A stretch of DNA of 63,961 bases, counting the filler, from Reclinomonas americana ATCC 50394 (lineage: Eukaryota), in the NCBI GenBank assembly GCA_048213135.1. It is 6 parts of 4 records of this genome, joined end to end, with 100 filler letters (N's around TTAATTAATTAA, not from the genome) between each part and the next. Parts side by side here need not be neighbours in the genome. Positions count along the whole stretch, not along the records: positions 1 to 14,471 come from PS015129.1; 5 more parts are not named here. One strand, given 5' to 3'. The notes beneath the pieces are model-generated. The model was not told the DNA's origin. It worked only from the letters and a program-made list of their open reading frames with translations, and made no database searches. Both the position numbers and the translations under genes were made by a program. The stretch's first letter is position 1. Every line of letters begins with the position of its first letter. Shown here piece by piece: positions 1 to 50,700 of this stretch.

Positions 1-175
<175 letters not shown>

Positions 176-200
176 CTCACGAACTCTGGTGCACCGGCAG

Positions 201-2533: not shown

Positions 2534-2676
2534 GTGAGTGTGNNNNNNNNNNNNNNNNNNNNAATGCGTGGTGTTGTTGTTTTTGTGCGACCGTCGACGA
2601 GAAGGCAGTCGCATTACGATTCTTCCTTCCCTGCGCTGTCCTCTGTCAGTCGTTTCTCATCTCTCCACCTCTCCAG

Positions 2677-3813
2677 GTACACGCAGTGGACGAGACACTG
2701 TCACCCACCGACCGCGCAGAGTGTCGCTCCCTGATTGGCTACGTACACGATCGACTGGCACCCTGCATCTCCTTCTTGTGGTGCAGCATCGAGCGTTTCG
2801 TTGACGCGCCCATGAATGCGATGGCTTGCAGCGTGCTGACACACGCACGCACGCACAGAGAACTGGGATTCACAAGTGTTCCCGGCGTTGTGCGAGCACG
2901 TGTCGTACTTGCAGTCGTGGTATGTACCGCAGCGGATCTACAGGTTTCACAAGAAGCGGCTGGAGGCCTCGTCGCACTATTTCACCCTCGTCGGGTCGGT
3001 GACAACCACCGAGGTCAGTCGGCAGCTGCAGTGTGTGTGCTCGACGCGCCGCACCCGTTCATTAATCGCTTCGGCGGGCAGGTGGTGAGCACGGCTCGCG
3101 AGGCGTTGCAGGTGCTGAACGAGCGCCTGGGTGACAAGAGCTTCTTGTTTTCACGCACTCGACCATCGTCGGCCGACGCCGTGGCGTTTGGCCTCCTGGC
3201 GTGCATACGCCAGCCGAACTTCCTCGTGAATCCCCTGCTGACCTTGCTGCGCGATGAGGTGTGTGTTGTGACGATGTAGTGGCAGTCGCCTTGCGCCGTC
3301 CTGCTCACACATTGTGTGTCGCTGCAGTTCCCACGCCTGTTCGACTACTACGACCGCCTCTCCGGGCAGTACTTTACCGACATGGAGGAACTCCGACGAT
3401 CCGAGAAGTGCGCACTTCGATCTCCACTCCTTCATTCATTGGCCTGTTCACCCCCTCACCGCTCCATGCAGGAAATCCCCCATTACCACTGGTGCCAAGC
3501 CGGGAGAGGAGGTGAGCGGGTCGAACCCCGACGAGGACGAGTATGCGAGGAATCGCAGATTTGCCTTTTGGTTGGCATGTTGCGTGATGACTTGCACCCC
3601 ATTCCTCCGCCATCGTCGCCATGCTCATTCGTTGTGGTAGTGGGCGGCCTGGCGACCTATGTGGTGGCCCAACTAATGAGCGAGTGGGAGAAGCACGATC
3701 CGGCCATGGGGCGCGTGCGGCATCCAGCCGTCAAGGAGGACGATGAAGAGGACGATGACGGCGGGGACGACGACGACGACGATGACGACGACGATGATGA
3801 TGATGACAATTAA
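2677..3813 (+). CDS. Metaxin-1/Sam37-like mitochondrial outer-membrane protein (GST-C-like domain plus C-terminal TM), N-terminus missing
   Basis: Spliced product contains LSPTDRAECRSLIGYVHDRL...ALQVLNERLGDKSFLFSRTRPSSADAVAFGLLA...FPRLFDYYDRLSGQYF, then RNRRFAFWLALGGLATYVVA (TM anchor) and an acidic tail; TAA at 3811-3813. Confidence 0.85.
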
Positions 3814-3917
3814 CAACAACAGCAACGACAGCAGCAGCACCGCAGGCACATGAATGTGTTTGTGGCCTTTCACGAAAATGAGAATGCATCGAGTCCTTGT
3901 TGGGTGTGAGAAACGCA

Positions 3918-6900
3918 CTACTGCATGTCGTGGAAGGCAGTGGCCAGGGACATGGCATGCTTGGCATGAGCGAGTGCGGTCTTCAGTCGATTCCGTGCGT
4001 ACACCACCGGGCAGTCGATGGAGGTGCACTCGACTGGTTCGAAGCGAACTCCCATCGAGCCCGCCTCGCATGCGCCACAGACGGTGAACAGATCGTGTTG
4101 CTTCTTGTCCAGCATGCGCAATCGGGCCGCCAAGTACGGCAGGTACGTGTCGGCCTTGGCACACCGCTCACAAATGTCTGCCCCGGCGGTCTCCGCCTGC
4201 ACCACGATCCACGAGTCAGTCGAGCTCCCTCTCCATGTACACACACACACATACACACGCAACGTCGCATGCCAGGCAACGCCGTGGCGTGTAAAACTCG
4301 TCAATGGTGCGCGCCTTGCGACCCTCCGACGCCTTCACTGATCGTCGTCGTCGCCACTTGACATCGCGAACCACATGTGGGATGACTCGCCACCACTCGG
4401 CCACGCTCATACCCGACTGCGCCAAACACGCGAAGGCATGTGAGCGTGATACAGCGTGCACGCTTTCATATTTAGGCACTCACCACTCCCAGCACGCGGT
4501 CGAGGGCCGGCAGAATCTGTCGCGTAATGTAGTAGTAGGCGTCCACTCGGCGGTCCTCGCGCAACGCATCCGCCGGATCGTACACGCACTCAGACGGACG
4601 CTGCCCTGGCTCGCCGAGAGTCACCACAAAGGGCACGCGCTGCAGGCGGCCAGCATGATGATCAGTGCGCTTTCTATATTTCCACCCTCTCCTGACTGCC
4701 TACGTACCTCTCCGTACGTGGGTTCCGCACGCCGATCCTTCTTCATCTTGTTCGCGGCCACCAGCACGGCAAACGGCTTGGTTCCGCGTTCGCTGCACAT
4801 ATCGCAGATGCATAAATGGAACGGAGAGACACGTCGACAACCCAAGACAGCACAGCACAGCACACCTGTAGCTTCCCATGCGCACAGTCTTGAAAAAGAC
4901 AAAGTCCATCAGCGACACGTCGCCACGTTGAATGCGCTGCAGCTGCGAGACGACGTAGTTCTTGACACGCGTGCAGTCGAGAGTGCCAAACAGAATGCTG
5001 CGCACACATGTGTCGCGTCATGATCAGCCAAAAGCCACAGTGCGCACAGTCGGTGCATCTCCAGCACAACTCACCGAAGTGCATTGTGCATCATCTTGAC
5101 CGTGGCTGGGCACTGATCGCGACGAATCGTCTCGATGCCCTTGGCGTCCAGTGTCGGCACTTTTTGCGACTGCGATTCGTAGCACTGGCCAACGTAGCGC
5201 TTCTTGGTCACCATAATCGATGGCAGGTACACCTTCTCCAGTTGCAGCTTCATCGGCGGTGGGTGGCGTGCCGTGACGGCGGCGACAATCTCTCGACCGT
5301 ACTCAAACGCCCGCTCCAGACTCGCTCCACGCATCAGCACAAACACGCTGTCTGTGTCGCCGTACACAACCCGTGCATTCCACTGCGTGGGCGTACACAC
5401 AATGAACACACGGAGTAGATGAAGGAAGAACGAAAAACAGGTGCACACGCACCCGTGGCTCGCCCTCAATGACACGCACAGCATCCTCCAACGCCGCTCG
5501 CCCGTACGCCACAATCGAGTCGGCAATGTCGGAGCATGGCATGCGACCGGAGAACGATGCCGAGGTGTAGCCGTAGGTGACGTTGGCGATCATTTTGAGG
5601 CCAAACTGGCGCGAGTCGAGAATGCGATGGAGGACGCGGTTGCCCTTGGCGCGCTTCATCGAGCGCTTCACCATGACGCGTGTGTCGAGAATCTCCTTCA
5701 GCATGCGTGGCAGCACGCCCTCCCTCACCTCCTTGTTCAAGTAGATGATGCCGTTGGGCGACACTGCACAATGAGGGAAGGAGCACACAATGAAAACAAG
5801 AAAACCACATGCCGCATGCCAAGTGCAAGCGAGATCGCACCGTGCAGGTGCTCGCCAAACTGGGCCAGTGTGCCCGGAGGCAGCTCGTACTGCTCCATGG
5901 CACCGAGTCGCTTCGGGCCGAGCCGCGCCTTGCCCAGCACAGTGGAGAAGCTGCGGGTTGCGTGTTAGCGAGGAGTGCACACGACAGTGGACACATTGGC
6001 GACGCACCACAAGTTGTGTCCGATGACAATGGACGGATACAGGGAGCGAAAGTCTAGCACCGCCACAGGATCCGTGTACAGCGCCGAGTGCGGCTCCATC
6101 ACCAACGGAATCACCTCGATGGCATTCTGATTCGACACTTGCGCTTTGGACGGCGACAGTGCAATGTACCCCGACGGCTTGGCGATGCGCAGCATCATGC
6201 TCTCCACGCGATACTGCGAACCACGGGAGACTACGTTGAAGAACTCGATGCCGTAGATACGAGCCAGCTCACTGAGTGGTGCACACGCAGTAAGCGAATC
6301 GTGAAAGCTGCAGTCATCGAAAACGCGGCCAACCTGGTACGATTGATGACATCGAGCTCCAGGAGCACACGAAAGGTGAGTGCGATGCGCCACACGAGCA
6401 GTCGCAGAACACGCTGATGCAGGGACGGTGCTGTCGGCCGCTTGTACCACTCGTTCAACACCTCCCACGTATACGCCGGCACACTGGGCGACGGAGAGAG
6501 AGAGTGATGTGAGCTCACACTCTTGTACGACAGCGACAGATGGCGCAGGCAACCGCACCGTCGGCGCAACACCTCCCACACAATCGATTCGAAGGAGTAG
6601 GAGAAGAGGTTGAGCTCACCGCGCAGCATGCGACACACATTGAGGACGATACGGCCCGTCACACGGATGCCACTCTGTTTCCGTCGGCCCCACTCGTCCA
6701 CGTCCACTCTGGCGCCCCCCACATGCATGTAGTGAGCTTTCGAACAGGATGTAAATGATCCTCTGCCACACACGCAACTTGGCTGGCGCGTTGCCGAACT
6801 TGGGTCGCACGCGGAAACGCGAGAGAAACTCGCACAAGTTGCCCCAACCTGTGTGCAGGGCCACTTAAGTGCGCGCACAAGAGTGACACACGCGCGACAC

Positions 6901-9900
6901 AAATAATCACGAACCGCACATCCAACAGCGCTCAAACAGATAGCCCAACGAACGCTGCTGTATCTCGAAGCCGCACAAGACGTCAGGATCGGTGACGCGC
7001 ACAATCTCGATGAAGCGGCCAAACATGGTTCTGCGAGACACCATCTCATGTGAGGTGGCATTCTCCCGAAAGGCAGGCAGGCTGGCAAGGAAGGGGGGTG
7101 GCGCACTTTTCATCCTCGCAGTGTACCACATGAGTGACACCCCACCGCGACACGCCCGACGTGCTGCGATAGCCGACAGGCTGCGGTGGCACGGCGTCGT
7201 TGATCAGCAGACACATGAATTTGCTTGGCGTGTCGGCCTCGATGCACTCGGTGGTGTTGTACAGCGCCAGACAAATCAACAGCACAGGATCCAGTTCCGG
7301 GTCCGGCAGCAAGTCTCCTCGTGAATCCACTACCCCCCAAGCAGTCAGCAAAGACAACGGGGTAAACAAAAGAGGACTCGCGATGACGAAACTGTGCGTG
7401 TCCACGCAGAGGCAGCGCAAGTGCGGGATCAACAGGCCGGATTCAGTGCGTGCTTTCTCGGCCGGTTGGGCCTTTTGCTGCTGACGCCGTTCAGCCTTTT
7501 CGTTGACCACCTCATGAACGGGTACCTTTGAATCGCGTGGCGGCCCAACCCCGTCATTGGCGCTGGCCATGGTTGGCGCACTCAGCACCTGCGACGGATC
7601 GTAGACCGCCGTTGGCAGGGCGTCGGCCACCGCCATGTCCACGCCAGGTGCCTCGGCGAAAAACTGGACCACTTTCTCGGGTCGCGGAAGTGGAGCTGCC
7701 ACGTACGAGCTGGGCGTGGTGGTCACAGCGGCCGCCAGATCGACCAGCAGTTCGGCGTTGGTGGGCGGTCGTCGTGCCGGAGTCAGCGTCCTGCGCCACA
7801 GCAACGCACTGACGTTTGGCGGGCGGCGCTGACGCTCCTGCACTGCGCGCATGACTCTGCTCATGGCGCCACCAAAGGCCACCGTGATGGCCGGTGGCAG
7901 GCACGTCGGCAACAAGCAGCGAGTGACCGGTGCCACACCGTAGCGCTCTTGCACCTTGTACACGCTACGCGGATTGCCAATGCCGCTCTCCGATCGACTG
8001 CCGCCCGTCACATGTGGTACATCGGCCTCCACCGTGTAGTGTGCAGGCTGCAGTGCGCACACGACTTGAGTGGACGACAGGGACTTTGAGAGGGGGAGGG
8101 GGCGCTCACCTTGTTCTCAGTGTACAAATGTCCCTGCAATGTCAGCGAGGCCAGCAAGTCGGCGTTGGGCGGTGGCCGCAGGGCCGCCGATAGCCGTACA
8201 TGCTGGCCACGAAATCGCGAAATGGGGGCAATCTTCATCCACGGCACGCGTGGTGCAGGTGGCGGTGCTGGCGGTGGCAAGAGAGGCGGCGACGGAGCAG
8301 CAGGAAAATCCTCCGCCGCTGCCTCGCCCGACGGATTCAGCTCCAGGCGCCGCACAGCAGTGCGCGTGAACGGCATCGCTGCGCGCGAAACCAACAGCTG
8401 CGACGGCGAGTCGCCAAGCTCGCCGAGCACTTCACGGATCGGTCGGCGAGTGGGCGACGGCTCTGCCAACGAAATCATCGCCGGCGGCTGCACGAGCGGC
8501 GGCGACAAGACGGGAGTGACAGGCGACTCTTCGTCCGATCCGTGCGCTGGTGTAGCAGCAACTGCTGGTGGTGGTGGCGGAGGTGGTGGCGGAGGTGGAG
8601 GTGGTGCGGGTAACGGTACTTGCTCCAGAGAGGCCAATAGGCCGCGTGGCGGAGCAGCGGTCGGTGGCGGTGCAGCGCGCTCAGCCACACGCATCGCACT
8701 CATGCGATTGACCATCGAGGGTGGCGCGCCAGTGGGTGCGCGGAACGACGAGCTGCCGGGAACTGTCGTCGGCGGTCGTTGTTTTGCTGTGGGTGCTGAA
8801 GGCCGAGCAGGTACGACAAAGCGGCCGGCAGTGGCGTCGCGCTGCTCCTCGTCCGACCGGCGCAACATCTCAAGCATGGACACGCGCGAGGACGATGCTG
8901 AGCGCATCGGCGGTGGCGGTACAGCCGGCGGCGGAGGAGGAGGAGGGGGAGGAAGAGGCGAGGGGGGACGTGGTGGTGGTGGAGGAGGAGGTGGTGGTGG
9001 AGGTGCAGCGTCCACTTCCACTGGCTGCACGGGCGACTTGGCCGCTCGTTGCATCAGCACCTCATCAAAGCGACGGCTGATGGCAGGATGGTCCCACTGC
9101 GACAGCGAGTCAAAGTCGTCCACTGTCGCCGGCGGGGCCGGTGTGGATCCCACATCGGGTGACGGTGTGCGTGAACTGGACGCTGCCGGGGTCGTGGCTG
9201 TGGCTGGACTCGGCGTCCGTCGACGATGTCTGACCGTCGGCGGCAACGCCTGCGTCAGGTCCGGCACCTCCAGTGACGATCGCTTCCGATTCTGTCGTCG
9301 AACGTGGCGGAATGGGCTCGCCACAGTTGCCGCCGCCGCCGCCGCCGCCGATGACGACGACGATGACGACGACAACAACGTCGCAGCTGGTGAGGGTGGT
9401 GGCAACGGTGCAGGTGGAGGCATGCGTCGAGCGGCAATCTCCTCTGCGGTGAGAGCACGAGCAGCTTCTGGCTCATCGTCTTGCCCGTCCAGTTGCGAGA
9501 GTATGCCGAGGCGCTGCAATCCAGTTGTCGCGCTGGGTGGTCGCACCGCGATGCCGACGACAGCCGGCGATGATGAAGACGGCCGCGCAGCAGATTCGTA
9601 CTCCACATGGACACGTGCACCACCTCTGTCGCTCAACAAGCCCCCATCAAACTGCAACTCTGGCAAGATCTCCTCATCTTCAAAGAACGGGTCCTCCTGT
9701 TGCGTGCACTCTTTCAGCAAGCGAACCTATATAGCCAGCGCGAAGAACTGCAGCACATAAAACTCGCCTCTGCCAGGGGATCGCTCGGAAATCCAAACTC
9801 GTCATCCGTGTCGTCCGCCTCTCGGTCCTCCTCATGCTCCTCCCCGCCCTTGGCATCCTTCCACGACCGCTTACGGTCGGGCATCATTGGGCTGCATCGG

Positions 9901-11636
9901 TGACACGTTACGTACTGCGATAAAGTACGACAGAGAAAGGGGGCGACGCACAACAACGCACATGGATCGCAAGTATTCTCGTTGACTCTGCGACAGCTCC
10001 TCGTGCCAACGAGCAGCCTCACGTTCCTCACGCTCCACTCGTCGACGAGCCGCCTCCCCGGATCCACGAACAGCAAGTGGAGACCGCACGGCTGCACCGC
10101 CCCCCTCTTCATCGTCCTCGTCGTCATCGTCGTCATCGCCACCGTTCTCTTCCTCGTCACTCTGTCATTTTTCACGAATGAGCAACAATGAACACCGCGC
10201 GTCGAAGAATGGGACCAACTCAACATCCAGCTGTCGCATCCAGTCGAGAATCTCTCCACTTTGCGCGTCGCCACCGCCCTGACTGGCCTGCGATGAGACC
10301 GACAGACTGCCGGCGGTGACGGCGGCAGCCGCAGCCGCACTCTGGCCACCAGCCGCCGCAGCCGCACTGTCCTCTCGAATCAGCTCGAGCATGTGCTCCT
10401 GCCATGCGCTGGAGTTCACGGGGTACTTTGTGTGAACACACAGCACGCACGTATGCATGCACACAATGGCGCGCACCGTTCAATCGGTGTCTGGGAGGTG
10501 CGCGGTACGCGCTCAGGAGTGGGACTCGGTTGCGAAAACTTGACCTCCTCCTCACTGCCGCCGGTGGCCGCCAGCTCGGCCACACGCCGACCTCGCTCTT
10601 CCTGCCAAATAACGAATGAGGGCTCACGGATGCTCAACAAGTGTGAAACAACCATAACTCCGCACCCTCCACAAGCCGGCCAGGCTCTGCACGAGCTTGC
10701 TGTCGGCGGCACACTTGCGAATGTCGGCACGTGACAAGTCGAGCCGGTTGAGAATGTCGTCGGCCCACACGTCGCCCTCGAACCGACAATGACTCTGCTT
10801 GGCAAACTCGTTTACCCAATCGGAGGCCAGCGGGTCGGGACGTGATCGCCAGTGCACGGCGGTCTTGGGCATGCGCACCGTGTCCATGCCGTAGATACCG
10901 TGGTCGATCATGAACTGCAGCGCGTACGGCAAGTGCGCCTCGCACGGCTGGAACGGCACGCCGAATGCGCCACCGAGGAGCAGCGCCGCCACTCGGCTCA
11001 CAGCATTCGGATCGTACAGCAGAATCTGGTAGTAGAGCGCCTGCACTGGCGAGAAGCCGTAGAAAGGCCAGCCACGAATGACCCGCACATCGTGCACATG
11101 CTGCGTGGGACCCGACGCCGGCCGCGCATTCCACGTGGCCGTGCCGGTGGCGGCCGTCTTCTCCAGGTTGAGATTGGACAGCAGCTGCGCCTGTTCCGTG
11201 GCCATCTTCGAGTCCACGGCCTCGGCCAGTGTGCACGCCAGTGCCCAGATCACTGCAACGAATGAGCACAAGAGAGAGAGGGAGGAAGGAGGGCGGCGAC
11301 TCAACATTCATCGGAATCACTGCTGTTTTGCGGAATGCGTGTCGATCGCATCCCGTGCAACGTCGCCAGCAGCTGCGACACGGGCGGCACCGGTACAAAC
11401 AAGTACGGAAGCGCCCCATGAATGTGCAGACACATGGAGCTCGACGGCGGCAACTGCGACCGCAAAGACGGCATGGCTCCGCCACCGCCCACTGCAAGCA
11501 CAGGTTCCACAAAGTACTCGCCACCACCACTGGAGGAGGAAGCAGCAACTGGATCGACATCATCCATCAACTCGGCCGGCAACTCAATGCTTCCGCTCCC
11601 ACTGCTGGCAGTCGGCACTTGCAGCGACAACGATCG
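3918..11636 (-). CDS. REV3: DNA polymerase zeta catalytic subunit (B family), about 22 introns, extreme N-terminus in the gap
   Basis: Motifs CLHIHGALPYLF, EAHLPYALQFMIDHGIYGM, SRGDLLPDPELD, SRGSQYRVESMMLR, VLDFRSLYPS, LKMIANVTYGYTSASFSGRMPC, VVYGDTDS and KKRYVG; C-terminal CysA (CLAC...CERC) and CysB (CGAC...CTSIDC); long Pro/Ser-rich middle exon at 8110-9726. Confidence 0.97.
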
Positions 11637-11668
11637 CTGCAAGAAGCATCAGCCATCTGATCAAAGAG

Positions 11669-11712
<44 letters not shown>

Positions 11713-12305
11713 GCACNNNNNNNNNNNNNNNNNNNNNNNNNNNNNNNNNNNNNNNNNNNNNNNNNNNNNNNNNNNNNNNNNNNNNNNNNNNNNNNNNNNN
11801 NNNNNNNNNNNNNNNNNNNNNNNNNNNNNNNNNNNNNNNNNNNNNNNNNNNNNNNNNNNNNNNNNNNNNNNNNNNNNNNNNNNNNNNNNNNNNNNNNNNN
11901 NNNNNNNNNNNNNNNNNNNNNNNNNNNNNNNNNNNNNNNNNNNNNNNNNNNNNNNNNNNNNNNNNNNNNNNNNNNNNNNNNNNNNNNNNNNNNNNNNNNN
12001 NNNNNNNNNNNNNNNNNNNNNNNNNNNNNNNNNNNNNNNNNNNNNNNNNNNNNNNNNNNNNNNNNNNNNNNNNNNNNNNNNNNNNNNNNNNNNNNNNNNN
12101 NNNNNNNNNNNNNNNNNNNNNNNNNNNNNNNNNNNNNNNNNNNNNNNNNNNNNNNNNNNNNNNNNNNNNNNNNNNNNNNNNNNNNNNNNNNNNNNNNNNN
12201 NNNNNNNNNNNNNNNNNNNNNNNNNNNNNNNNNNNNNNNNNNNNNNNNNNNNNNNNNNNNNNNNNNNNNNNNNNNNNNNNNNNNNNNNNNNNNNNNNNNN
12301 NNNNN

Positions 12306-14381
12306 CTCCTGCAAGTGGCGCCAGTGGAGGCGCACTCGCTCAATGCCCAGATCCGAAACCGGGCAGTACGCCGCCGACACACGGCGCAGATTCACCAGCG
12401 TGCGCAGCTGGTGCCAGCCAAGGTCACCGATTGCCGTGCGATCCAGCGTCAGATCGGTCAATTTCACAAAACGGCTCAACGAGGCACACGCGTCGTTGGT
12501 GAGCGTGCAGTCGTGCACATTGAGAGTCTCCAGTTCCACGAGCCCTATTTGTAACAGTCAGCACGCAACGGGGATAAAAGAAGAAGGGGAGGACGCAACC
12601 GGCGAGGGCGGCCAGGCCAACGTGCGTCAACTTGGTGGAGCCGGCATCCAGGTGGCGCAGTTTGCGCAGTCCGGCGAGGGCGGTAGAGAGGCCGCGATCG
12701 GTCAGCTTGAAACAAAACCCGACGCTGAGCCACTCCAAGGATGTCAAAACTGCGTGTTGAGACACCGAGTTAGCAAGCGCACCACAGTGTATCCAGATAG
12801 CCGAGTGGCGAACACACGCAACATTGCAGCGCCGCAATGGCCGCATCGTTCAGCTGCGAGCACTGCTCGAGGTCCAGCTTCACAAGGTCCTCACAGCCTG
12901 AGTGAGAGGGACACGATGAGGCAAGGCGACGTGTCTGTGCAAACCCCCTCTCCTCTCCCTCAATGCACACCTCGCAGACCCATGAGACCGTCGGTATCAA
13001 AAGAGGTGCAGCCCTTCAGCGACAGGGACTGCAGATGCGTGTGCGCTGCGAGCAATGCCAGCAAGAGAGGAAGCACAAACAGCCGTGTCAGCCGCGCGCT
13101 CCGCCACCACCACCGCCACCAACACGTGAAAGCAGGCACGCACCTCCAATCGCACACAATCCCTCGTTCGAGATGTCGGAGCAAAAATCGAGACGCAAGT
13201 GCCTCAGGTGCTTGGAGATGCACGACAGATCCGAGCCCTTGTGCACGCAACACAGCCGTCAACACGCGTAAACTTCATCACCCGCTCACATCCACGCACA
13301 TACCTGCACTTTGACGCAGCCAAGGAGCGACACGGTCTCCAACTCGGGCAAACCGTACAGATACGCGACACCACTGCACAGAAGCTGTGTCAACGCTAAG
13401 CACACAGTACCGGCCCGAATCAATCACACGCAACGAGTCCTCGAGAGCGTCGCAGTTGACAAACGACAGATTGGTGAGGTACGGGAAGTGAGCCACCAAC
13501 TGCCGCACATACTCGGCGTCGGTCTCCTCCGATCGCACATTCAACGAGGGTATACTGCACAGACGCGTGAGTGTGCTGGAATGGCGGCCACAAAAACCAC
13601 CACAACCGCCACGCAACTACAGGCCGTCGAATGCCGGCAACACCTGACGCGACAGCTTGCGCTTCTCACTCAACACGCGCAGCATCTCCGACACCACATG
13701 CGGTGGCAAGGTCGACACCTGCGCGCGATCCAGCAGCGCAAAGTGCTGCAGGAGCCACACAATACACAGATGCGCCAGTGTCTGTGCGCGCGAGGGGCGA
13801 GAGGGAAAAGAGTGTGAGAAAACGCGCCGCCTGTCCGAATCGCGGGATAACTCAACAACAACAGCGAGGAAAGGGGAGAGAGAGAGAGAGAACAGGGGCA
13901 CGCGGGAGAGACAGTTGCGCGTGTGTGTGCGCCACCACCGCCTCATGTCGCACACGGATATGGCGATCATTGTTCTCACCTGACCACCCTCATGCCCCCT
14001 CACAGACTCCTCATACAACTCCTCCGCCGCGGTCAACGTGTTGCGACGCTCGACCGCACACGAGTCGCCTCCACACGACGCACCTCCGTCCACCTCACTG
14101 CTCACATCGTCGGCCCACAGCACCGACGATGCCACAGAAGATGACGATGAAGAAGACGACGACGAGGATGAGGCCGGCGACAGAGGCAACATGAGCAGCA
14201 GTGAAGGCGAGGGCGCGTCTCGCAGAATGTCCACTGAGAACGAGTGCTGCATGGAGCCATCGCCACCGGGAGTGCTCGAGGCGCGACGGCGGTTGCCTCC
14301 AAGGCGGGAACCCGATGAGGACGACGAGGAAGAGGAACGGCCGTTACGGCGTCCACGAAGGCACCCACACAGTGCGCCCAT
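12306..14381 (-). CDS. RNI-like/AMN1-type LRR protein with N-terminal acylation motif and BC/Cul2-box-like segment; 3' end in the gap
   Basis: MGALCGCL start; TLAHLCIVWL...LPPHVVSEML; Cys-containing LRRs (LTNLSFVNC, LETVSLLGC, LQSLSLKGC, LVKLDLEQC, LEWLSVGFCFKLTDRGL, LETLNVHDCTLTN). Confidence 0.85.
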
Positions 14382-14515
14382 CCTGTGACAAAAAAACGGA
14401 GCAAGCGACGGAGCTGGCAGAGGGAGAAGTAGGTGGTGGCGCGCGGATGCCCGTTCGTTAATATGCGATGGNNNNNNNNNNNNNNNNNNNNNNNNNNNNN
14501 NNNNNNNNNNNNNNN

Positions 14516-14527
14516 TTAATTAATTAA
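14516..14527. other. Artificial scaffold linker TTAATTAATTAA between N runs (also at 39665-39676, 47406-47417, 56798-56809, 62816-62827)
   Basis: An identical palindromic 12-mer with stop codons in all six frames, always flanked by similar N runs. Confidence 0.95.
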
Positions 14528-18266: not shown

Positions 18267-20174
18267 CTGCGCCACTCGGCGGCCTCGATCGTCGAGAATG
18301 TCGGCTGCGTTCGCTGGATTGTCGCGCGGTGTCAAGCGATTGAGGTTGTCGGCAATCTTCATCTCCAACTCGGTGTTTTGCCAGATGGCTCCATCGGTCA
18401 CCTCTGGCCACGACAGCGTCGGTTCCACAGCGTCGCTCGCTGCGTTCGACACACAAGTAGGGTGAGCAACTATCGTTAAAACTTGTTCTGTGTCTGTCAG
18501 TGGAGGCAGACGAAACCTGGAGCACTCGGTGGTGGCCGCTGTCGCAGCGATGGAGTGCCGACTGACGATCCGCGGCGTGCACTGAGCAGACCCATGCCAG
18601 TGTTGGCGACACCGGACTCCCACGACACCTGACCGGGAATGAGCGGCACCACGTGCATGGCGTTGCTCTTGCGTTTCCTGGCCACCACTGGCGGTATGAC
18701 TGGCAGGCGCTTCTTCTTCTTCTTCGGCACCGGTGCGGGCTCTGCGGGTTTCCGGCGCACCTTGGCCACAGTGCGCCTTGTCGGCATGCTCTTCTCCGCC
18801 CTCTCCTCCTCCTCTTGTGCCACCTCGCTTTCGTCATCCTCTTCCTCGTCTTCCTCCTCTTCGTCTTCTTCGTCATCATCATCGTCATCGTCGTCACTGT
18901 CATCCTGTTCGTACGCGGCCAGCAAGTCACGCGTCTTGTCGATCAGCACTCGGCCAAACAGGCCGCGCCACGTCAGGTTGACCACGTGGCTGGCCGAGTA
19001 CTTGTTCACAATGTAGCTGTGAGGGGCACGTCGGTGAGGTGAGCAACAACACCACACAAAATGAGATGGGGGTGAAGAGAGCGCAACTCTCGCAAAAACG
19101 TCTCGAGCATCTTGTCGTGCTCCAGACTGCGCAAGAACGCCAGCTGCTCCGGCGTCGGTGCCGTCCTCAGCTCGCCATTGCTGGACTGGCGCGACAATAC
19201 CTCCAGCGCCGACTGCAACCGCATGGCCTCCTCCGCCGACGCGTCGCCAATCACCTCCTGAATGCGATTCTCCCAGTATGCGTGGCGGCCGGGCGTGTGC
19301 AACAGCTTATCCCGCCGCATCTCCTGATACACCTCCAGCAGCGCACGAAGGCGCGCGGCATCCTTTTGCCACGCCTCCGCCAATTGTCGCAGATCCTCGT
19401 CCTCCAGCTCCACCACTGCCGACTGAATCGTCTGCAGGCGAGAGAACGACTCAAGCGCACTCTCCAAATACTCGACCGCGGTCGGCAGCACCGGAAGCAC
19501 CGGTTTCGTTTCGCACACACTCTGCACGTCATTGTCGACCGACTCTGCGCGCGCGCGAATGATTGAGAACCGCAGCAGACAAACCTCCTTCAGTGCTGTT
19601 CGAGAATAACAATACCATCGTGTACTCTCCGGATCCAATCATTCAACGAGGCGACTCCATCATCGCGACACTTGACACGCTCCAACGCGGCCTTCCTTCT
19701 CTCCGTGCGCCACTCCTTGTAGCACTCCTCGCTAAACGTATCCGAATCCAGCGACAAGTTGTCCTCCTCATCGTCCGCGCCTGCTGCTGCGTCCCGAGGT
19801 GCGCTATCCTCCTCCTCCAACAGTAGCAGGACAGAATCATCACTATCCGCAACCGGCGGCACCGTCGGTGTCGTTGATTGGTTCGGCTCGTCATTGATTG
19901 GCGGCGGTAACGGAATTGGCGAGAGGGTGACGACGGGTTGCGGCGACGCGTCGAGCACCACACTCAGATCGATCAACAACGCCGACGAAGATGGTGGCGG
20001 CGTGCTCGGCAACATCAGCAACAACGTCTCCTTCTTCTGTGCATCCTCGTTGTCTGCGAGGGTGTAGTCGACGACCGCCGCGAGTGGCTGACACGAATCC
20101 TCTTCTTCCTCCTCTTCGTCACTGAGCTGCCACGGTCTCACTTCGCCCACACTCGCATTGACTGCGAGATCCAT
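18267..20174 (-). CDS. Hypothetical protein with acidic tracts, a helical region and a PKKKKKR NLS-like motif; 3' end in the gap
   Basis: Long coding-like segments (MDLAVNASV..., EYLESALESFSRLQTIQSAVVELEDEDLRQLAEAWQKD..., VPKKKKKRLPVIPP) separated by short introns. Confidence 0.6.
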
Positions 20175-22091: not shown

Positions 22092-24279
22092 AGAGAACGA
22101 GGAGAGAAGAAGAGNNNNNNNNNNNNNNNNNNNNNNNNNNNNNNNNNNNNNNNNNNNNNNNNNNNNNNNNNNNNNNNNNNNNNNNNNNNNNNNNNNNNNN
22201 NNNNNNNNNNNNNNNNNNNNNNNNNNNNNNNNNNNNNNNNNNNNNNNNNNNNNNNNNNNNNNNNNNNNNNNNNNNNNNNNNNNNNNNNNNNNNNNNNNNN
22301 NNNNNNNNNNNNNNNNNNNNNNNNNNNNNNNNNNNNNNNNNNNNNNNNNNNNNNNNNNNNNNNNNNNNNNNNNNNNNNNNNNNNNNNNNNNNNNNNNNNN
22401 NNNNNNNNNNNNNNNNNNNNNNNNNNNNNNNNNNNNNNNNNNNNNNNNNNNNNNNNNNNNNNNNNNNNNNNNNNNNNNNNNNNNNNNNNNNNNNNNNNNN
22501 NNNNNNNNNNNNNNNNNNNNNNNNNNNNNNNNNNNNNNNNNNNNNNNNNNNNNNNNNNNNNNNNNNNNNNNNNNNNNNNNNNNNNNNNNNNNNNNNNNNN
22601 NNNNNNNNNNNNNNNNNNNNNNNNNNNNNNNNNNNNNNNNNNNNNNNNNNNNNNNNNNNNNNNNNNNNNNNNNNNNNNNNNNNNNNNNNNNNNNNNNNNN
22701 NNNNNNNNNNNNNNNNNNNNNNNNNNNNNNNNNNNNNNNNNNNNNNNNNNNNNNNNNNNNNNNNNNNNNNNNNNNNNNNNNNNNNNNNNNNNNNNNNNNN
22801 NNNNNNNNNNNNNNNNNNNNNNNNNNNNNNNNNNNNNNNNNNNNNNNNNNNNNNNNNNNNNNNNNNNNNNNNNNNNNNNNNNNNNNNNNNNNNNNNNNNN
22901 NNNNNNNNNNNNNNNNNNNNNNNNNNNNNNNNNNNNNNNNNNNNNNNNNNNNNNNNNNNNNNNNNNNNNNNNNNNGAGAGAGAGAGAGAGAGAGGCTGTG
23001 TGCGTTTATTTGTGTGGCTCTGTGTGTGGGTGATTGTGCTGCTCTTGCACCGATGTGTCTGTGCGCTCACCAGAGAACAGAGGTGAAGTGTGCATGTTTG
23101 TGTTCCTGTGCTTGTCATGCTGTATTCTGTGGTCGCCGTAAAGAGAGATAGACGCTGTGTGTTTGTGTCAGTCGTGTCTGTGTTCTCGAGAGATTCTGCC
23201 CTTGCATGCGTTGCTGTGGTTCACCCTGCCCCTCTCCCCACAGTTTTCGCCAGTGGCCACCGTGAGCTATCGAATGCACCCCGAGATTCATGTGGCTCCC
23301 GATCTGGGACCAGCGTTGGCGGACCAGCTGGTGAAGATGTGCCCGACTGGCGTGTTCGAGATTGATGATTCAGGAGGTGCGTGATGTGAATGTGTGAGAG
23401 AGAGAGAGAGAAGAGGAAAGTGGAAGTGAGTGAGTGAGTGAGAGTGTGTGTTGTGGCCCTGAGATATCGTCTTCGTGAGTGCATCCTCGCGACCGTCTTC
23501 ACCCTCCACAGCGAAGGCAAATCCATCCGTGTGTGAGAGAGAGGGGAGAGTGAGCGAGAGAGTGAGGGCGATGAACAGCGTGTTATTCAATCTCCCTCCC
23601 TTGTTCACAGTCTCCCTTTCCCTCTCCACAGTCTCCCTTTCCCTCTCCAGAGTCTCCCTTTCCCTCTCTACAGTCTCCCTTCCCTCTCCATCGTCTCCCT
23701 TCCCTCTCCATCGTCTCCCTTTCCTCTCCACTGTCTCCCTTTCCTCTCCGCACTCTCCCTTCCCCTCTCTACCGTCTCCCTTCCCCTCTCTACCGTCTCC
23801 CTTCCCTCTCTCTCCACTGTCCCCCTTCCCTCTCCACCACCGTCTCCCTTCCCTCTCCACTGTCTCCCTTACCTCCCTTCCCCCTTTAGACACGGTGACA
23901 GCGGTCGCTGCGTACCCCCGCAACTGCACCTCGTGCCGCGAGTGCATTCGACACGACGGGTGGACATCGCGCGTGCAACTCAACAAGATCAAGACGCACT
24001 TCATTTGTTTCGTCCGCCCGCGCCATCTCATGTCTCCCTTGCCCCTGCACTCACATTGTCGTCGCAGTCTCTGTAGAAAGCACGGGCATGTTTACGGCGG
24101 CCGATGTGGTGCTGGAGGCCGTCAAGGTGCTGCGTCAAAAGTGTGTGACAGTGCTGGAGGCGCTCGACAAGTTTGTCGACGACCAGGAGCAGCGGGATGC
24201 GGTGGCGATGGATGCCGACGAGGCGGGTGATGACGATGACGACGATGACGATGATGATGAGGACGAGGACGACGAATAG
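20808..24279 (+). CDS. POLR1C: RNA polymerase I/III shared subunit RPAC1 (AC40); middle exons in the gap
   Basis: FDMINIDAPLANALRRVMLAEVPTMAIE...NTSIVADEVLAHRLGLVPL; FSPVATVSYRMHPEI; CPTGVFEI; PRNCTSCRECIR; HFIFSVESTG; TAG at 24277-24279. An alternative upstream in-frame ATG lies at 20721. Confidence 0.95.
23605..23885 (+). repeat. Intronic ~21-22 bp pyrimidine-rich minisatellite (TCTCCACAGTCTCCCTTTCCC-like)
   Basis: About a dozen degenerate tandem copies in an RPAC1 intron. Confidence 0.8.
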
Positions 24280-40793: not shown

Positions 40794-43700
40794 CTAGACA
40801 GGAAGGCCCTCACAGATACCGTAATTGCATACCCCAGCGCAGCATTCGCTATTGTCGTTGCAGCTCACGTTCGCAGCGCCGCAGGTGGCACTGCAAACCG
40901 AATAAACACAAAAACCTGAGCAACAATCAGCGCCGCTCATGCACGGGTCATTCAGCGCGCCACCGGTGCACGCCGGCGTGCACGTGTTGTAGGTGCATGA
41001 ATTCGAGCAGCATTGTCCGCTGGACGAGCAGCTGGCACCATCTGTCGCGCACGCGCACCGCGCAACGCCAGTGGATGTGGAGCACTCGCTGCCCTCGGCG
41101 CACTGCGCAATGATCGAGGTGGTGCCGTAGACGCACGTCAGCACCGCACGGCGGTTCAGCGAGCACGTCGTGGTGCCGTCGGGCAGCGTGCACACGCCGC
41201 AGTCGGAGCCGCCGTAGCCGGTGGGGCATGTGATCGGAGCGCCCTGCGCCGCACGACCAATCGCCACCCACGTCACGTACACAATGTCCGACACGTCCGA
41301 GCCGCTGGCGTTGTACGAGATCGCCGTCACGTAGTCCTCGTTGCCGAGGCGCCTGGTGGTGAACTGCAGCGACGACTGATCGACGCGGTTCTGCACAATG
41401 ACTGCCGACGACTTCCAGCCGCGCAGGAACAGCTGAATGCCAAGGGTGGCGCGCAGCAGGCCGTTGGGGGTCGACGACGTCACCAGGCTGGCCGTCTGCG
41501 TGGTGGCGGCGCCGGGGTGGGTCGTTTCTGGACAAAAGTATTTTAGACAAAATTTCGCAAATGCAGAGGTGGGTGACAGGACGCACCACCCGACAGCATG
41601 ACAAAGCCGCTGTTGTTGGTGTTGTCGGGGCGAGTCGGCGCCACAGCAAAGCGCGCAGACACCGCCTCCATGCGCGAGTCGCCGCTCACCGTGCCCTTGA
41701 TGACAAAGCTGGTGCGCGACGCCGAGCTGCTCGACAGCGAAAAGTTGTCACCGCGAACGCGTCCGTCGTTGCCGACAGCCGACTTGCGGATCGACAGCAC
41801 ACCAATGACGGCCACGGGAATGGCCGGCACCGACGCAAACTGGTACGCCGACGACACGCTCACCAACTGCGCAGACGGGGAGTGAGTAGTCTGACCAAGA
41901 GGCAAGAATCTCCAAACAGACACGCAACAGATGGGCTGTTCTTGTTCAGCGCATCCGTCACCCACGCCTTGCTTGTCAGCGTGCGCTGACCGTCCATCGA
42001 CAGAGCATTGGTCTGGTGCACGTAGTACGCCAGATAGCCTGTATCATGGAAAAGAGATGAGCCACCTTGCCGTGCCTTGTCCTCTATCGCAGTGAACGCA
42101 ACTCAGAGTGATGGTGGGTCCCACTTGCCCGGAAGTCGACACACCGTAGCAACGAGTCGACATCCTCGCCACAGTCACCACCGGCTCAGCGCAGAAGGCA
42201 AAGGTGCCGTCAGCCGGCTCGTTGGCCAGAGTGGAAATCGGCGCGGCCTGCTGGTTGCCGACACTGGCAAAACCGATCAAGACACGCGGGCGGCGGAAGA
42301 ACTCGCTCGCAAACGTCAACTGAATGGTGGTGGTCGTCACCGCCAGTGTCGACATGCTCGGCTTCGCCACGTCAGCGGCCAACGGAGTCGATGTGGGAGT
42401 GGGGGCGCTCGTGTTGAGACCGCCGTCGGTCATGAAGCCGGAGACAAACGACTCCTCCGCCGATTCGTACGGTCCGTTGTTGGCCGCCACACACAACTTG
42501 TAGGCACCGCCACCGCGAGAGCCGTTCGGGGTGATGTTTGCGCGGAACAGGCGGCAGCCGGTGATGAACTGGCACGCATCGGCGCCGCTGCGCGTAAACA
42601 CCGCACCGACACTGCCCGTCAGCGTCGAGTAGTCCGACAGGGTGGAGCAGTCGGCGCCGGCCGGAACCAGCTTGAAGCTCGTGCAGTCGGTGAGGTTGTC
42701 AGCCGACGAACCAATCACGATCGAGTTGGCACTGCCGTACTTGAGCACGGGCGGATTGGCAAAGGAGACCACGGGGGTCGACGAGGCAGAGGTGACAACA
42801 ATCGGGACCGTTTGCAGGCGGTAGACGGCGGTGCCGCCGGCCTGGAACCTACAAGAGGGGAAGGGTGAGAGGGGGAAGGGGAAGGGAGCAGGAGAAGGGA
42901 AGGGAAGGAAAGGGAAGGGAAAGGGGGGAAGGGAAAGGAAGGGGAAGGAAGGGGAATGGAAATGAAGCGAGAGGACAGGAACGGGGAAGGGGAAGGGGGA
43001 AGAAAGGGAGACGAGGACAAAGAGCGACAGCGGCACAAAAATTGTGGTATAAAGGATAAAGATGCCTGACAACAGCACCAGCAAAAGGGTTGGAGAAAAA
43101 GAAACAACAGCGCTAGACAGATAGAGGCGGCCAACGGAGATGCACGGAGAGTTGATCATAAAAAGGAGGGAGACGCCAGACACGCGCAGCACCAAAGAGA
43201 TGAGCATAACAATACCTGTCACTACCCTCCTTCTCTCTCTCTCTCCCTCCCTTCCCCCACGTGGACGCAACTTGCCACACAGATAGTACACGCCCGGCGA
43301 CGCCAGCGTGCAAGAGCCAGTCGCCGTCGCACCCAACGCGCCCTGCGCAAACGAGGCACCAGTGGCCACCGAGAACACAGCCTGGAGACCAGACGGGTCG
43401 CTGGACTGCAGCGAGGCGCTCGAATTGGGCGCCGCCGCGCCGCTGCAATCCGCAGCGGCGTACAGGCCAAACGAGCCACCGGCGCCCAGCTGACGGTTGG
43501 CAAAGTGCTGGCCGGCCACCGTCAGGCGGTAGTCGGCGAGACCGTTCACCAGCTGCGGCGAGCGGCTCTGCGTGTTGATGGTGTCTGTGTGACGGGAAGA
43601 TGATGAGTGTCCATGAAAGTCGACATGTTTCTGATCTGATGACCACTGCACGCAACAGACAAACACAGTGGCCACATACTCGTTGCGGGCGGCCGTGCCA

Positions 43701-44338: not shown

Positions 44339-44388
44339 GTTTGCCACACTCTGTGCGCGCGCACACACACGAGGACAACTGTGAGATG

Positions 44389-47779: not shown

Positions 47780-50700
47780 CTGCGTCACCATCTCCTCCGA
47801 CATTGCCGCACCCTGCCTCTGCTGTGTGTACAACAACTCCAGCGAGCTGCGCTTTCGCGTCACTGGGGTGGCTCCTCGCTTCCCCTGCGACACCAGACGC
47901 TGGCCCGAGTTGCGCAGTTGCGAGTTGCGCTGCATCAACAGCTGACTCTGAAACACCTCGCGAGGCGTCGACACTGCGCCCGGCGTCGCGCTACCGCCAC
48001 CACCACCGGACCTTGGTGGTGGAGTCTCTGGCCCGACGACACTGCCGCCGCCGACCTGTGTACCGCCGACGGTGATTGCCTGCAGCATCGCCTCCTTGCG
48101 CTCTCGATCCTCCTCAATCTCCCGAATCCGCTCGTCGCGAAACTTGATTTGCGCCCGCACATTTTCCACACTCTGCAACGACTCCAGTCGCACTCGCTCC
48201 ACCTCGGCCTCCTTCAGCTTCTCCACATCTCGGTACTGCCGTCGCAAATTGAACAGCTCCTTGTCACGTGACTGCAACGAGCCCTCCAGCACGCGGATCT
48301 TGCCCTCGCGCACACTCAACTCGTCGTCGCGATGCTTGAGTTGCATGTCGAGCTCGGCCAGCTTGCTCTCCAGCGCTTGCAGACGGTCCGTGAGGATCTT
48401 GTCGACCTTCGCGCCGCCCGTGGCTGCTGCCGCCGCGAGGGGAAGTGAGAACCAGAAGAAAAATCGAGCAAACCATGGACATTGGCGCACCTTGAGAGAC
48501 TGGAGAATCCGCCCGTGCGGTGGCTTGGTTACCACGTCCGCGAGATGGCGAAATCGGCACGGCGCTGGGATTGGCAGCGGCGGTCGCCATTCGTGCCGTC
48601 GATGCGGGATCTGCCATGCTGTGCTGCTGCTCTGGCGGCTGCAAAGGTGACGGCGGTGTGGGCGGTGGAGGCGGGACCAGTGATGATGACGACGGAGAGG
48701 CCTGCGGCACGCTCGCCGGTGGCTGTTGTGGAGGTGCGGGCGGTGGACGGAGGGAGCCGGCAAACAGCACCGGTGACATGACAGAGGGCGTTGGCTGCGG
48801 CACGACCTGTCGAGCGGGCATGAGAAGAGAATAGATACCAAGGGAGGAGGGAAAACAAGCAACCTGTGGCGCCGACGACGACGACACTGGTGATGACGAA
48901 GGCACCGAGGACTCGGTGGGACGAAGCAGGTCGCCCTCCATGTCGTCGAGATCCATGGCGCGCCAGTCGATGCCAGCTGCGTGAGGAGAAGTGAGAGGAG
49001 AGGCGACAGGAGAGGGGAGAGGAGAAGGGAGACGAGAANNNNNNNNNNNNNNNNNNNNNNNNNNNNNNNNNNNNNNNNNNNNNNNNNNNNNNNNNNNNNN
49101 NNNNNNNNNNNNNNNNNNNNNNNNNNNNNNNNNNNNNNNNNNNNNNNNNNNNNNNNNNNNNNNNNNNNNNNNNNNNNNNNNNNNNNNNNNNNNNNNNNNN
49201 NNNNNNNNNNNNNNNNNNNNNNNNNNNNNNNNNNNNNNNNNNNNNNNNNNNNNNNNNNNNNNNNNNNNNNNNNNNNNNNNNNNNNNNNNNNNNNNNNNNN
49301 NNNNNNNNNNNNNNNNNNNNNNNNNNNNNNNNNNNNNNNNNNNNNNNNNNNNNNNNNNNNNNNNNNNNNNNNNNNNNNNNNNNNNNNNNNNNNNNNNNNN
49401 NNNNNNNNNNNNNNNNNNNNNNNNNNNNNNNNNNNNNNNNNNNNNNNNNNNNNNNNNNNNNNNNNNNNNNNNNNNNNNNNNNNNNNNNNNNNNNNNNNNN
49501 NNNNNNNNNNNNNNNNNNNNNNNNNNNNNNNNNNNNNNNNNNNNNNNNNNNNNNNNNNNNNNNNNNNNNNNNNNNNNNNNNNNNNNNNNNNNNNNNNNNN
49601 NNNNNNNNNNNNNNNNNNNNNNNNNNNNNNNNNNNNNNNNNNNNNNNNNNNNNNNNNNNNNNNNNNNNNNNNNNNNNNNNNNNNNNNNNNNNNNNNNNNN
49701 NNNNNNNNNNNNNNNNNNNNNNNNNNNNNNNNNNNNNNNNNNNNNNNNNNNNNNNNNNNNNNNNNNNNNNNNNNNNNNNNNNNNNNNNNNNNNNNNNNNN
49801 NNNNNNNNNNNNNNNNNNNNNNNNNNNNNNNNNNNNNNNNNNNNNNNNNNNNNNNNNNNNNNNNNNNNNNNNNNNNNNNNNNNNNNNNNNNNNNNNNNNN
49901 NNNNNNNNNNNNNNNNNNNNNNNNNNNNNNNNNNNNNNNNNNNNNNNNNNNNNNNNNNNNNNNNNNNNNNNNNNNNNNNNNNNNNNNNNNNNNNNNNNNN
50001 NNNNNNNNNNNNNNNNNNNNNTGCGTTCACCACCGAGAGCGGAGCTGCTGGTGGGGACCAGGCGCGGCGAGAATGGCTTGCGTTGCTGCTGCTGTTGCTG
50101 CTGCTGCTGTGACGCCGATGGCACTGGTGGCGGCTGTGGTGGCGGCAGAGAGGAGGCTGGAGCACGTGTGGACGAAGGCAGTGGCTGAGGAGCAGGCAGC
50201 GAAGATGCCGCCGATGCTCCCCTCCCTCGGCCAGCAGCAGCCGACGACGACGACGACGACGACATGCCGGGAGGAGGTGGGAGCTGTGGCCGTGTGGCGG
50301 AGCTGCTGGGCGGCGCGTAGCGCACAGATCGCGAGCCGACATTGCCGGCGGCACCGGCACCGGCAAGGTTGGCGGTGGAGCCGACGCTTTGCGATCGCCA
50401 CTGATTGCTCGGCAATTGCGACAGGGCGGACGAGGAGGTGCCGGCGTGCGCCGTGGTCGGTGGCGCACTGCGAGTTGAAGTCTGTGAGGCCATTGTGCCG
50501 CTCTGTCGTCGCTCCATCTTTTTGTACTGCAGACGGGCGGGGAGAAGGGAATGAGAGTGTGGGTTGTGTGCGCGGGGGGGAGACGAGATGTGGGGATGTG
50601 GACGCACGATCTCGGCCAATTGCTCCTCGCCAATGTCCTCGAAATCGAGATCACCAAAGTCGTCCTCCTTGAGCGAGACGGCGGAGGAGGGGGCCATGGA

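Follow-up and report, generated by a model that had tools for sequence, protein, structure and literature searches.

The stretch of DNA analyzed here (the window; 63,961 nucleotides (nt), filler included, in six joined parts from four records of the Reclinomonas americana ATCC 50394 assembly GCA_048213135.1, with positions 1 to 14,471 from PS015129.1) carries at 3918..11716, on the minus strand, the REV3 gene, which encodes the catalytic subunit of DNA polymerase zeta (Pol zeta) and has 22 short GT-AG introns and a 5' end that enters a gap of Ns. In REV3 and in other genes of the window, introns begin with one of two 5' splice site (donor) motifs, an ordinary one resembling G/GTG[C/A]G[T/C] and a shifted one resembling /GTTGCGT (a slash within a motif marks an exon-intron boundary), and we observed that exons end preferentially in G before the ordinary motif and show no such preference before the shifted one. 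The source of the window is a GC-rich, intron-dense eukaryote with short U2-type GT-AG introns, the G+C content being about 0.50-0.64 in 2-kb bins mostly without N, and 28 runs of N are present.

REV3 and the intron set

The REV3 exon at 5074-5376 (minus strand) encodes a segment with 60-65% identity to Pol zeta of animals, plants, fungi, and protists, only distant orthologs being matched; identity to Ostreobium, the one green-algal match, was 62%, no closer than to plants or animals. Ten orthologs were colinear with the gene by tblastn, from about 11450 down to 3942, and the Pfam families DNA_pol_B, zf-C4pol, and POL3_N were found on its exons, while a Pfam scan of 445 open reading frames (ORFs) of the window matched four families. 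The curated gene model is a single ORF of 2105 amino acids (aa) that aligns with the orthologs. Within it, the 1.6-kb exon at 8110-9710 (minus strand) encodes long Pro/Gly/Ser/acidic low-complexity runs with no ortholog counterpart, in a protein of more than 2100 aa.

Introns were called by a gene model that admitted only GT...AG introns and combined an intron length prior with codon log-odds, for which the REV3 matches and later the output of the model itself served as training data. Donors were scored over intron positions +3 to +9 only, split by T or not T at +3, and since the last exon base was never scored, the model does not itself impose a contrast at -1. The first pass was blind to the donor motif, which was then learned iteratively; the final relaxed pass gave 99 introns in 23 genes, from which those touching N or lying outside 45-110 nt were removed. 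REV3 was corrected by alignment to eight orthologs, whereby 7106-7031, 6333-6272, and 6914-6849 took the place of the model introns 7145-7082, 6272-6214, and 6926-6849, the in-frame, stop-free intron 6558-6484 was added by homology, and the in-frame intron 7392-7330 of the relaxed pass was confirmed by gapless alignment. The latter two (7330-7392 and 6484-6558, minus strand; 63 and 75 nt, multiples of three, no in-frame stop) are read through by ORF-based calling and were exposed by ortholog alignment only.

The counted set comprised 78 introns of 47-96 nt, with a very narrow length distribution (median 66.5 nt, interquartile 62-73), of which about 62% (48/78) were ordinary and about 38% (30/78) shifted. 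Left out of the counts were two hand-found introns of a leucine-rich-repeat (LRR) gene, with donors at 13303 and 13143, both after G, and the gap-edge REV3 intron 11637..11716. Classes were assigned by the position of the G[C/A]G[T/C] core. T at +3, a feature of the shifted motif in the first-pass annotation, was ruled out as a marker: it is carried by the donors G/GTTCGT (6914), G/GTTCGC (27318), and CAG/GTTGGC (6333), which come after G and have CG or GG at the spacing of the ordinary class. Since homology showed those at 6914 and 6333 to be of the ordinary register, core position was used in its place. The variant GTTTCGT occurs four times as a shifted donor (2795, 7392, 18516, and 24007), once (7392) with confirmation by homology. 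The REV3 introns, from 5' to 3' of the gene, are as follows.

11637..11716, minus strand: ordinary GTGCGT; -1 base lies in the gap; not counted
11253..11305, minus strand: shifted t/GTTGAGT; gapless DSDE-LIWALACTL with orthologs
10602..10665, minus strand: ordinary g/GTGCGG; gene model and homology curation
10409..10476, minus strand: ordinary g/GTGCGC; gene model
10162..10224, minus strand: shifted t/GTTGAGT; gene model; unconserved protein region
9892..9961, minus strand: ordinary after non-G, t/GTGCGT; gene model
9711..9763, minus strand: doubtful intron, a/GTTTTATG, AAG acceptor; gene model only, unconserved region; counted as shifted-type
8048..8109, minus strand: ordinary g/GTGAGC; gene model and homology curation
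7330..7392, minus strand: shifted variant a/GTTTCGT; 63 nt, in-frame, stop-free, TAG acceptor; gapless LCVDTH-MDSRGDL against eight orthologs
7031..7106, minus strand: ordinary after non-G, a/GTGCGC; VVHCEDEK-TMFGRFIEIVRVTDPDV matches orthologs
6849..6914, minus strand: ordinary register with +3 T, g/GTTCGT; ortholog spacing ERCWMCGWGNLCEFLSR obtained with 6914 only
6709..6778, minus strand: shifted a/GTTGCGT; flanking protein variable
6484..6558, minus strand: ordinary g/GTGCGG; 75 nt, in-frame, stop-free; gapless VLRRR-VPAYTW
6272..6333, minus strand: ordinary register with +3 T, cag/GTTGGC; gapless INRT-SELARIYGIEF
5951..6007, minus strand: ordinary g/GTGCGT; homology curation
5764..5840, minus strand: ordinary g/GTGCGA; homology curation
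5383..5452, minus strand: ordinary g/GTGCGT; homology curation
4998..5074, minus strand: ordinary g/GTGAGT; homology curation
4793..4865, minus strand: ordinary g/GTGTGC; homology curation
4640..4707, minus strand: ordinary g/GTACGT; homology curation
4417..4483, minus strand: ordinary g/GTGAGT; homology curation
4197..4263, minus strand: shifted c/GTTGCGT; junction directly after the conserved CxxC-D (CLACD)

Near the donor at 6914, an alternative t/GTTGGAT at 6926 (minus strand) lacks the ortholog spacing. Directly upstream of the doubtful donor a/GTTTTATG, at 9763-9767 (minus strand), lies gag/GCGAGT, a possible GC-AG donor in another phase; the model admitted GT donors only.

Last exon base in the two donor classes

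The contingency test of the last exon base against donor class, proposed in the first-pass annotation, was run on the 78 modelled introns of the window and showed that the two are not independent, G standing at -1 in 31/48 ordinary and 5/30 shifted donors (Fisher p=5.1e-5). The difference held outside REV3 (18/33 vs 5/24, p=0.014), among introns whose retention breaks the ORF (29/44 vs 2/24, p=3.3e-6), among introns of 55-85 nt (31/44 vs 5/28, p=2.5e-5), between the strict motifs GTGNG and GTTGNG (25/38 vs 2/22, p=2.9e-5), and in a cruder split under a stricter model between donors with non-T and T at +3 (26/38 vs 6/31, p=7.7e-5). In curated REV3, where the gap-edge donor has lost its -1 base, G preceded 13/15 ordinary and 0/6 shifted-type donors, the doubtful 9763 included (p=5.2e-4); the contrast earlier proposed for this gene is thus upheld, with these counts in place of 15/17 and 0/5. 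A bias well beyond chance, and not a rule, is thereby confirmed, as the first-pass annotation had worded it. The exceptions named there also exist: shifted donors after G at 12599 (gccg/GTTGCGT) and 26811 (gggg/GTTGCGT), an ordinary donor after non-G at 9961 (at/GTGCGT), and another, aa/GTGCGC, which is real and has its first base at 7106 instead of 7096.

In predicted coding sequence, G precedes 23.8% of non-donor GT (n=1780) and 15.1% of GTT (n=298). Against the former background, G at -1 is enriched in the ordinary class (binomial p=2.4e-9), and the shifted class sits at background by either measure (p=0.52 against 23.8%, p=0.8 against 15.1%). Avoidance of G by shifted donors was rejected on these same values, the 2/24 of the ORF-breaking subset also being near 15.1%. 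Since the last exon base of the shifted class matches background, the signal lies in the lost preference for G, with no favoring of A, C, or T, and the claim that A, C, or T goes with the shifted motif falls as a positive rule.

Intron phases were distributed as 7/17/6 in the shifted and 20/15/13 in the ordinary class (p=0.079), which is suggestive only. The LRR gene at 12306-14252 (minus strand) is built largely of one repeat unit per exon of 74-75 nt, and of four same-phase introns between units three fit the bias (13143, G/ordinary; 12970, G/ordinary; 12822, T/shifted), the fourth being 12599 (G/shifted). A comparison of exon composition at -2/-3 with that at -1/-2, tried for separating a shifted from a bulged pairing register, lay too near background to discriminate.

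The shifted introns listed outside REV3, followed by the two hand-found introns of the LRR gene, are given below.

2795..2858, plus strand: shifted variant c/GTTTCGT; gene model
3579..3640, plus strand: shifted t/GTTGCGT; TAG acceptor; gene model
12545..12599, minus strand: LRR gene, shifted after G, g/GTTGCGT; TAG acceptor
12750..12822, minus strand: LRR gene, shifted t/GTTGCGT; split codon TTT; also in motif-blind pass
13374..13434, minus strand: shifted c/GTTGCGT; gene model
13555..13617, minus strand: shifted a/GTTGCGT; also in motif-blind pass
18440..18516, minus strand: shifted variant after G, g/GTTTCGT; gene model
19017..19087, minus strand: shifted a/GTTGCGC; also in motif-blind pass
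24007..24067, plus strand: shifted variant t/GTTTCGT; relaxed model only
26743..26811, minus strand: shifted after G, g/GTTGCGT; gene model
27406..27464, minus strand: shifted t/GTTGCGT; gene model
31458..31523, plus strand: shifted-type, weak, a/GTTACGC; TAG acceptor; also in motif-blind pass
34382..34448, plus strand: shifted t/GTTGCGT; also in motif-blind pass
34785..34855, plus strand: shifted c/GTTGCGT; gene model
35413..35474, plus strand: shifted a/GTTGCGT; gene model
36064..36147, plus strand: shifted a/GTTGCGT; gene model
36516..36586, plus strand: shifted a/GTTGCGC; also in motif-blind pass
41867..41928, minus strand: shifted t/GTTGCGT; also in motif-blind pass
42039..42102, minus strand: shifted a/GTTGCGT; gene model
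43585..43656, minus strand: shifted t/GTTGCGT; also in motif-blind pass
48807..48863, minus strand: shifted-type after G, g/GTTGCTT; also in motif-blind pass
58330..58410, plus strand: shifted-type, weak, after G, g/GTTATGG; gene model
60042..60120, plus strand: shifted c/GTTGCGT; gene model
60799..60856, plus strand: shifted-type t/GTTGGGT; gene model
13238..13303, minus strand: LRR gene, hand-found, ordinary cag/GTATGT; contains the non-donor GTTGCGT at 13251; LRR unit in frame; not counted
13046..13143, minus strand: LRR gene, hand-found, ordinary g/GTGCGT; not counted

It is very unlikely that the shifted class is an annotation artefact, that is, a collection of chance GTTGCGT motifs paired with some AG by a self-trained model. 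The string is 3.1 times as frequent as expected from a second-order Markov model (33 vs 10.5), and the excess is specific to T, since GTAGCGT, GTCGCGT, and GTGGCGT stand at 1.1, 0.7, and 1.0 times expectation. The donor motif was indeed learned iteratively, which would favor an artefact, yet at least nine sites with GTTGCGT, GTTGCGC, or GTTGAGT had already been taken as donors by the motif-blind pass (e.g., 13617, 12822, 34382, 43656, 41928, 19087, 36516, and 11305). Retention would break the ORF for 68/78 introns (24/30 shifted and 44/48 ordinary), and the contrast at -1 is stronger in these introns, leaving 6/30 shifted introns that are not ORF-breaking as a point on the side of the artefact; an in-frame GT with an ordinary-looking core lies within 15 nt of 1/30 shifted donors. 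Furthermore, the REV3 shifted junctions at 11305, 7392, and 4263 align gapless with orthologs (6778 falls in a variable stretch), and shifted introns have a typical length of 53-84 nt and CAG or TAG acceptors.

The exact motif also has its failures, and these again speak for chance matches. GTTGCGT occurs 33 times on both strands of the window (preceded by T 14, A 8, C 7, and G 4 times), and 21 of these sites are predicted donors, two of them after G. Among the 21, 17 have introns of 55-84 nt, three have implausibly long partners, and one is open-ended, so that four lack a normal partner; the 12/33 sites not confirmed as donors are six that lie in unannotated sequence and lack an evident partner for a short intron, three antisense to a predicted gene, and three within predicted introns (5957 on the opposite strand; 13251 examined directly). 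For the ten exact sites without a normal partner outside these last two groups, no convincing intron of 45-110 nt was found. On account of these sites, the earlier figure of 30 shifted donors with 28 after non-G overcounts donors with the exact motif; a class of 30 does result when variants are included, with five after G.

In other respects the two classes resemble each other. Their mean lengths are similar (65.9 nt shifted and 68.5 nt ordinary), as is the share of pyrimidines upstream of the acceptor (0.61 and 0.64), and a branch-like motif CT[CG]A[CT] (CTCAY/CTGAC) is found in the last 45 nt of 52/78 introns (21/30 shifted and 31/48 ordinary), its A lying at a median of 20 nt from the intron 3' end. 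A continuous frame on removal, a branch-like motif in most introns, and C or T at -3 of the acceptor in all but 9763 are in keeping with U2-type GT-AG introns, GT and AG themselves being imposed by the model. The U12-type donor motif is /RTATCCTT, and no U12-type donor is among the 78 donors listed. C stands at acceptor -3 in 73/78 introns (48/48 ordinary and 25/30 shifted), and all non-CAG acceptors belong to shifted-type introns (TAG at 3579, 7392, 12599, and 31458; AAG at 9763); this link between acceptor and class could reflect a real coupling or weaker calls.

A separate origin for the second class, from a mobile introner-like family that carries GTTGCGT and inserts with no regard to G, appears extremely unlikely. 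Introner families with their own donor motifs are described for Micromonas in the portion of PMC3879977 available, but an all-vs-all comparison of the 78 introns gave just 15 short matches (12-14 nt exact, one of 33 nt at 85%), not grouped by class and short of the similarity expected of introners, and the likeness of the two classes in length, acceptor, and branch-like motif also speaks against it.

A common seven-base core and its possible reader

Aligned on a common core, ordinary donors have G 31/48, G 48/48, T 48/48, G 40/48, C 26/48, G 45/48, and T 27/48, and shifted donors have G 30/30, T 30/30, T 30/30, G 23/30, C 25/30, G 28/30, and T 26/30. Positions +4 to +7 of the shifted class are positions +3 to +6 of the ordinary class moved by one base, and both align as G-K-T-G-C-G-T, so that the proposed superposition of /GTTGCGT on G/GTGCGT holds column by column. 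The mean match to GGTGCGT in the common register is 5.52/7 for ordinary and 5.40/7 for shifted donors, and, as is expected of +1 shifted sites, the shifted donors fit the consensus well once displaced by one base and badly without the displacement. Moreover, the downstream part of the core is tighter in the shifted class (mean match 3.40 vs 2.87, Mann-Whitney p=0.0024), with exact GCGT in 17/30 shifted vs 5/31 ordinary donors that have G at -1.

The 5' end of the small nuclear RNA (snRNA) U1 is the known reader of donor positions -1 to +6. Given the motifs as aligned, we lean, with moderate confidence, to one seven-base element G-K-U-G-C-G-U as the 5' recognition element of the introns, read by U1 in a +1-shifted register in the second class, with the cut falling before the first GU of the element. 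In GGUGCGU the first G would be exonic, which would give the ordinary donor G/GUGCGU and require the exon to end in G; in GUUGCGU the first G would be the +1 base of the intron, which would give the shifted donor /GUUGCGU and leave the last exon base free. The 5' end of U1 would pair with the same seven letters in both classes, sitting one base further into the intron for the shifted one, and the catalytic spliceosome (U6/U5/Prp8) would set the position of cleavage afterwards, at GU. Tighter downstream matches would make up for one lost pair, at the U that faces the C of U1 with which +1 G usually pairs. The suggestion, made in the first-pass annotation, that the intronic +1 G takes the place of the exonic G and frees exon ends fits the background level of G (5/30) before shifted donors.

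The -1 G of ordinary donors might instead be no matter for U1, being a contact of U5 loop 1 or Prp8 or a relic of insertion at G/G, with the shifted class lacking it for unrelated reasons. Such an account, which we regard as quite unlikely, is helped by the absence of compensation in ordinary donors without G, discussed below, and leaves unexplained why the motif without -1 G should be exactly that of ordinary donors at an offset of one base, a G of its own falling in the corresponding place.

A bulged-U register is a competing account: U1 would pair with +1 G and +2 U as usual, one of the two Us would be bulged, GCGU would pair one step later, and the contact at -1 would be kept. Bulges at +2/+3 are validated for some human sites (68/201,541, according to the part of PMC4856993 available). 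By nearest-neighbour energies, G at -1 would add about 3 kcal/mol to the bulged-U register, with either the standard or a hypothetical matched U1 end, and the bulge therefore predicts a preference for -1 G at least as strong as in ordinary donors; because no enrichment of G is seen in the shifted class (5/30, at background, vs 31/48), a shift is favored and a bulge is judged improbable.

Several points weigh against a single element read by U1 in a shifted register. Ordinary donors without -1 G are no tighter downstream than those with it (2.88 vs 2.87, p=0.65), compensation within this class having appeared in a small hand count and vanished in the full set, and this weighs on a pure pairing-energy model because such a model predicts tightening. 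Where the exon does not end in G, the computed energies of shift and bulge nearly tie (+1.8 vs +2.2 kcal/mol for the standard U1 end, -6.1 vs -5.7 kcal/mol for the hypothetical matched one), and the standard U1 5' end (as given in PMC4856993) pairs only weakly with the shifted consensus (-1.5 kcal/mol), the C at +4/+5 being mismatched. Frame and homology fix a donor modulo 3 only, and the frame survives if both cuts are made one base further on; H/GTTGCGT...AG/X and HG/TTGCGT...AGX/ are thus told apart by the GT-AG rule alone, because both give the same reading frame. Only at 7392 does the residue at the junction (M vs R; A or V in orthologs) lean to /GT. A background-like -1 base would also be expected from false-positive donors, the shifted set outside REV3 being the output of a self-trained model. 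Finally, it is from sequence that we infer U1 as the reader, a register shifted and not bulged, and cleavage exactly at /GU.

The standard U1 end leaves the conserved C unexplained, and this genome is therefore predicted to carry either a U1 altered at its 5' end or an additional variant of U1; otherwise, something else would have to read the C. In one form of this idea, two U1 species or one non-standard U1 would provide each class with a perfectly matched reader, neither being shifted in terms of energy. About 38% of introns (30/78) is a large share for a mismatched mode, the strong C (25/30) would be accounted for, and variant U1 genes exist in humans (as far as the excerpts of PMC3561869 and PMC10870369 go); nevertheless, the equal total match of both classes to one 7-mer, together with the compensation pattern, fits a single reader, and no U1 or other snRNA gene was found in the window, even at E<=1. 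We consider this form unlikely.

Returning to a single element with a shifted register, a further step is that the shifted register is a second, selected, genome-wide intron mark, in about four of every ten introns, served by a co-evolved U1; this we put forward tentatively, as a possibility that is doubtful at present. Such a U1 is predicted to have a 5' end altered to pair with the conserved C (...ACG[C/U]ACC...), or to be a second variant fully complementary to GUUGCGU. Were it true, introns could follow any codon base and exon ends would be uncoupled from splicing constraint.

Neighbouring features and known systems

Outside REV3 and the LRR gene, an 890-aa ORF at 42047-44716 gave no relative in a homology search. 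RNA families were absent from the window at gathering score; at E<=1 there were just sub-threshold look-alikes of microRNA (miRNA), small nucleolar RNA, and cis-regulatory families, mostly on repeats. Two loci, 30215-30367 and 55297-55464, show sub-threshold matches on both strands to many unrelated miRNA hairpin families (best 38.5 bits vs a gathering score of 80), the latter overlapping a 69-nt repeat of 1.9 copies, and both probably consist of palindromic, low-complexity sequence. At 52499-52934 lies a (GAGT)n array with roughly 111 copies, owing to which GTGAGT-type strings are inflated on the plus strand (89/119; AGTGAGT 65 vs 10 expected). Other tandem repeats lie at 26336-26596 (27 nt, 9.7 copies, 91% match), 39473-39617 (19 nt, 7.7 copies), and 23591-23875 (20-21 nt, about 13 copies), and the first of them overlaps an ORF called as a gene in some passes of the model. 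Five pairs of 44-N runs with 12 bases between them (14472-14571, 39621-39720, 47362-47461, 56754-56853, and 62772-62871) look like an artefact of assembly or masking.

In annotation, some four of ten introns here would be missed or put in the wrong phase by gene finders trained on only one donor matrix. If the shifted class holds genome-wide, it would be a natural system with a noncanonical U1 register in a large fraction of introns and not in about 2% or less, and it would open tests of how far the position of the U1 helix can be uncoupled from that of cleavage, and of how strongly the need for -1 G at exon ends constrains coding sequence.

Among the papers listed in a limited literature search, outside which lie supplementary splice-site logos such as Micromonas fig. 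S1, none described any species whose donors include a major shifted-type class. The canonical donor AG/GTGCGT of Micromonas, a GC-rich green picoalga, has the same consensus as our ordinary class, with C at +4 and G at -1; its branch motif lies 43-52 nt from the acceptor, in contrast to about 20 nt here, and no GTTGCGT class is mentioned in the portion of that paper available (PMC3879977).

In humans, a +1 shifted U1 register, with all pairs displaced by one position and the cut remaining at GU, has been demonstrated with suppressor U1s for rare 5' splice sites (Roca and Krainer, 2009, as cited by Tan et al., 2016, in the available part of PMC4856993), and curated noncanonical registers together account for 2.1% of 201,541 donors, the 68 bulges at +2/+3 among them, according to the same excerpt. 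The human bulge at +2/+3 (Roca et al., 2012, as excerpted in PMC4856993) likewise inserts one more U behind GU and then continues with the usual downstream consensus, but it keeps the contact at -1, whereas the -1 G preference is gone in the shifted class here. The human shifted register, as that excerpt presents it, is rare, has an AAGU core, and was proven by suppressor U1, while ours covers about 38% (30/78) of the modelled introns, has a GCGU core, and is proposed from motif statistics. In brief, the shifted donor class is real at the level of sequence and is mechanistically plausible as a variant of a known U1 register, the human "Shifted +1" oligonucleotide ACA/GUCAAGUAUA (PMC4856993, in the part available) having the same geometry as H/GUUGCGU in the window.

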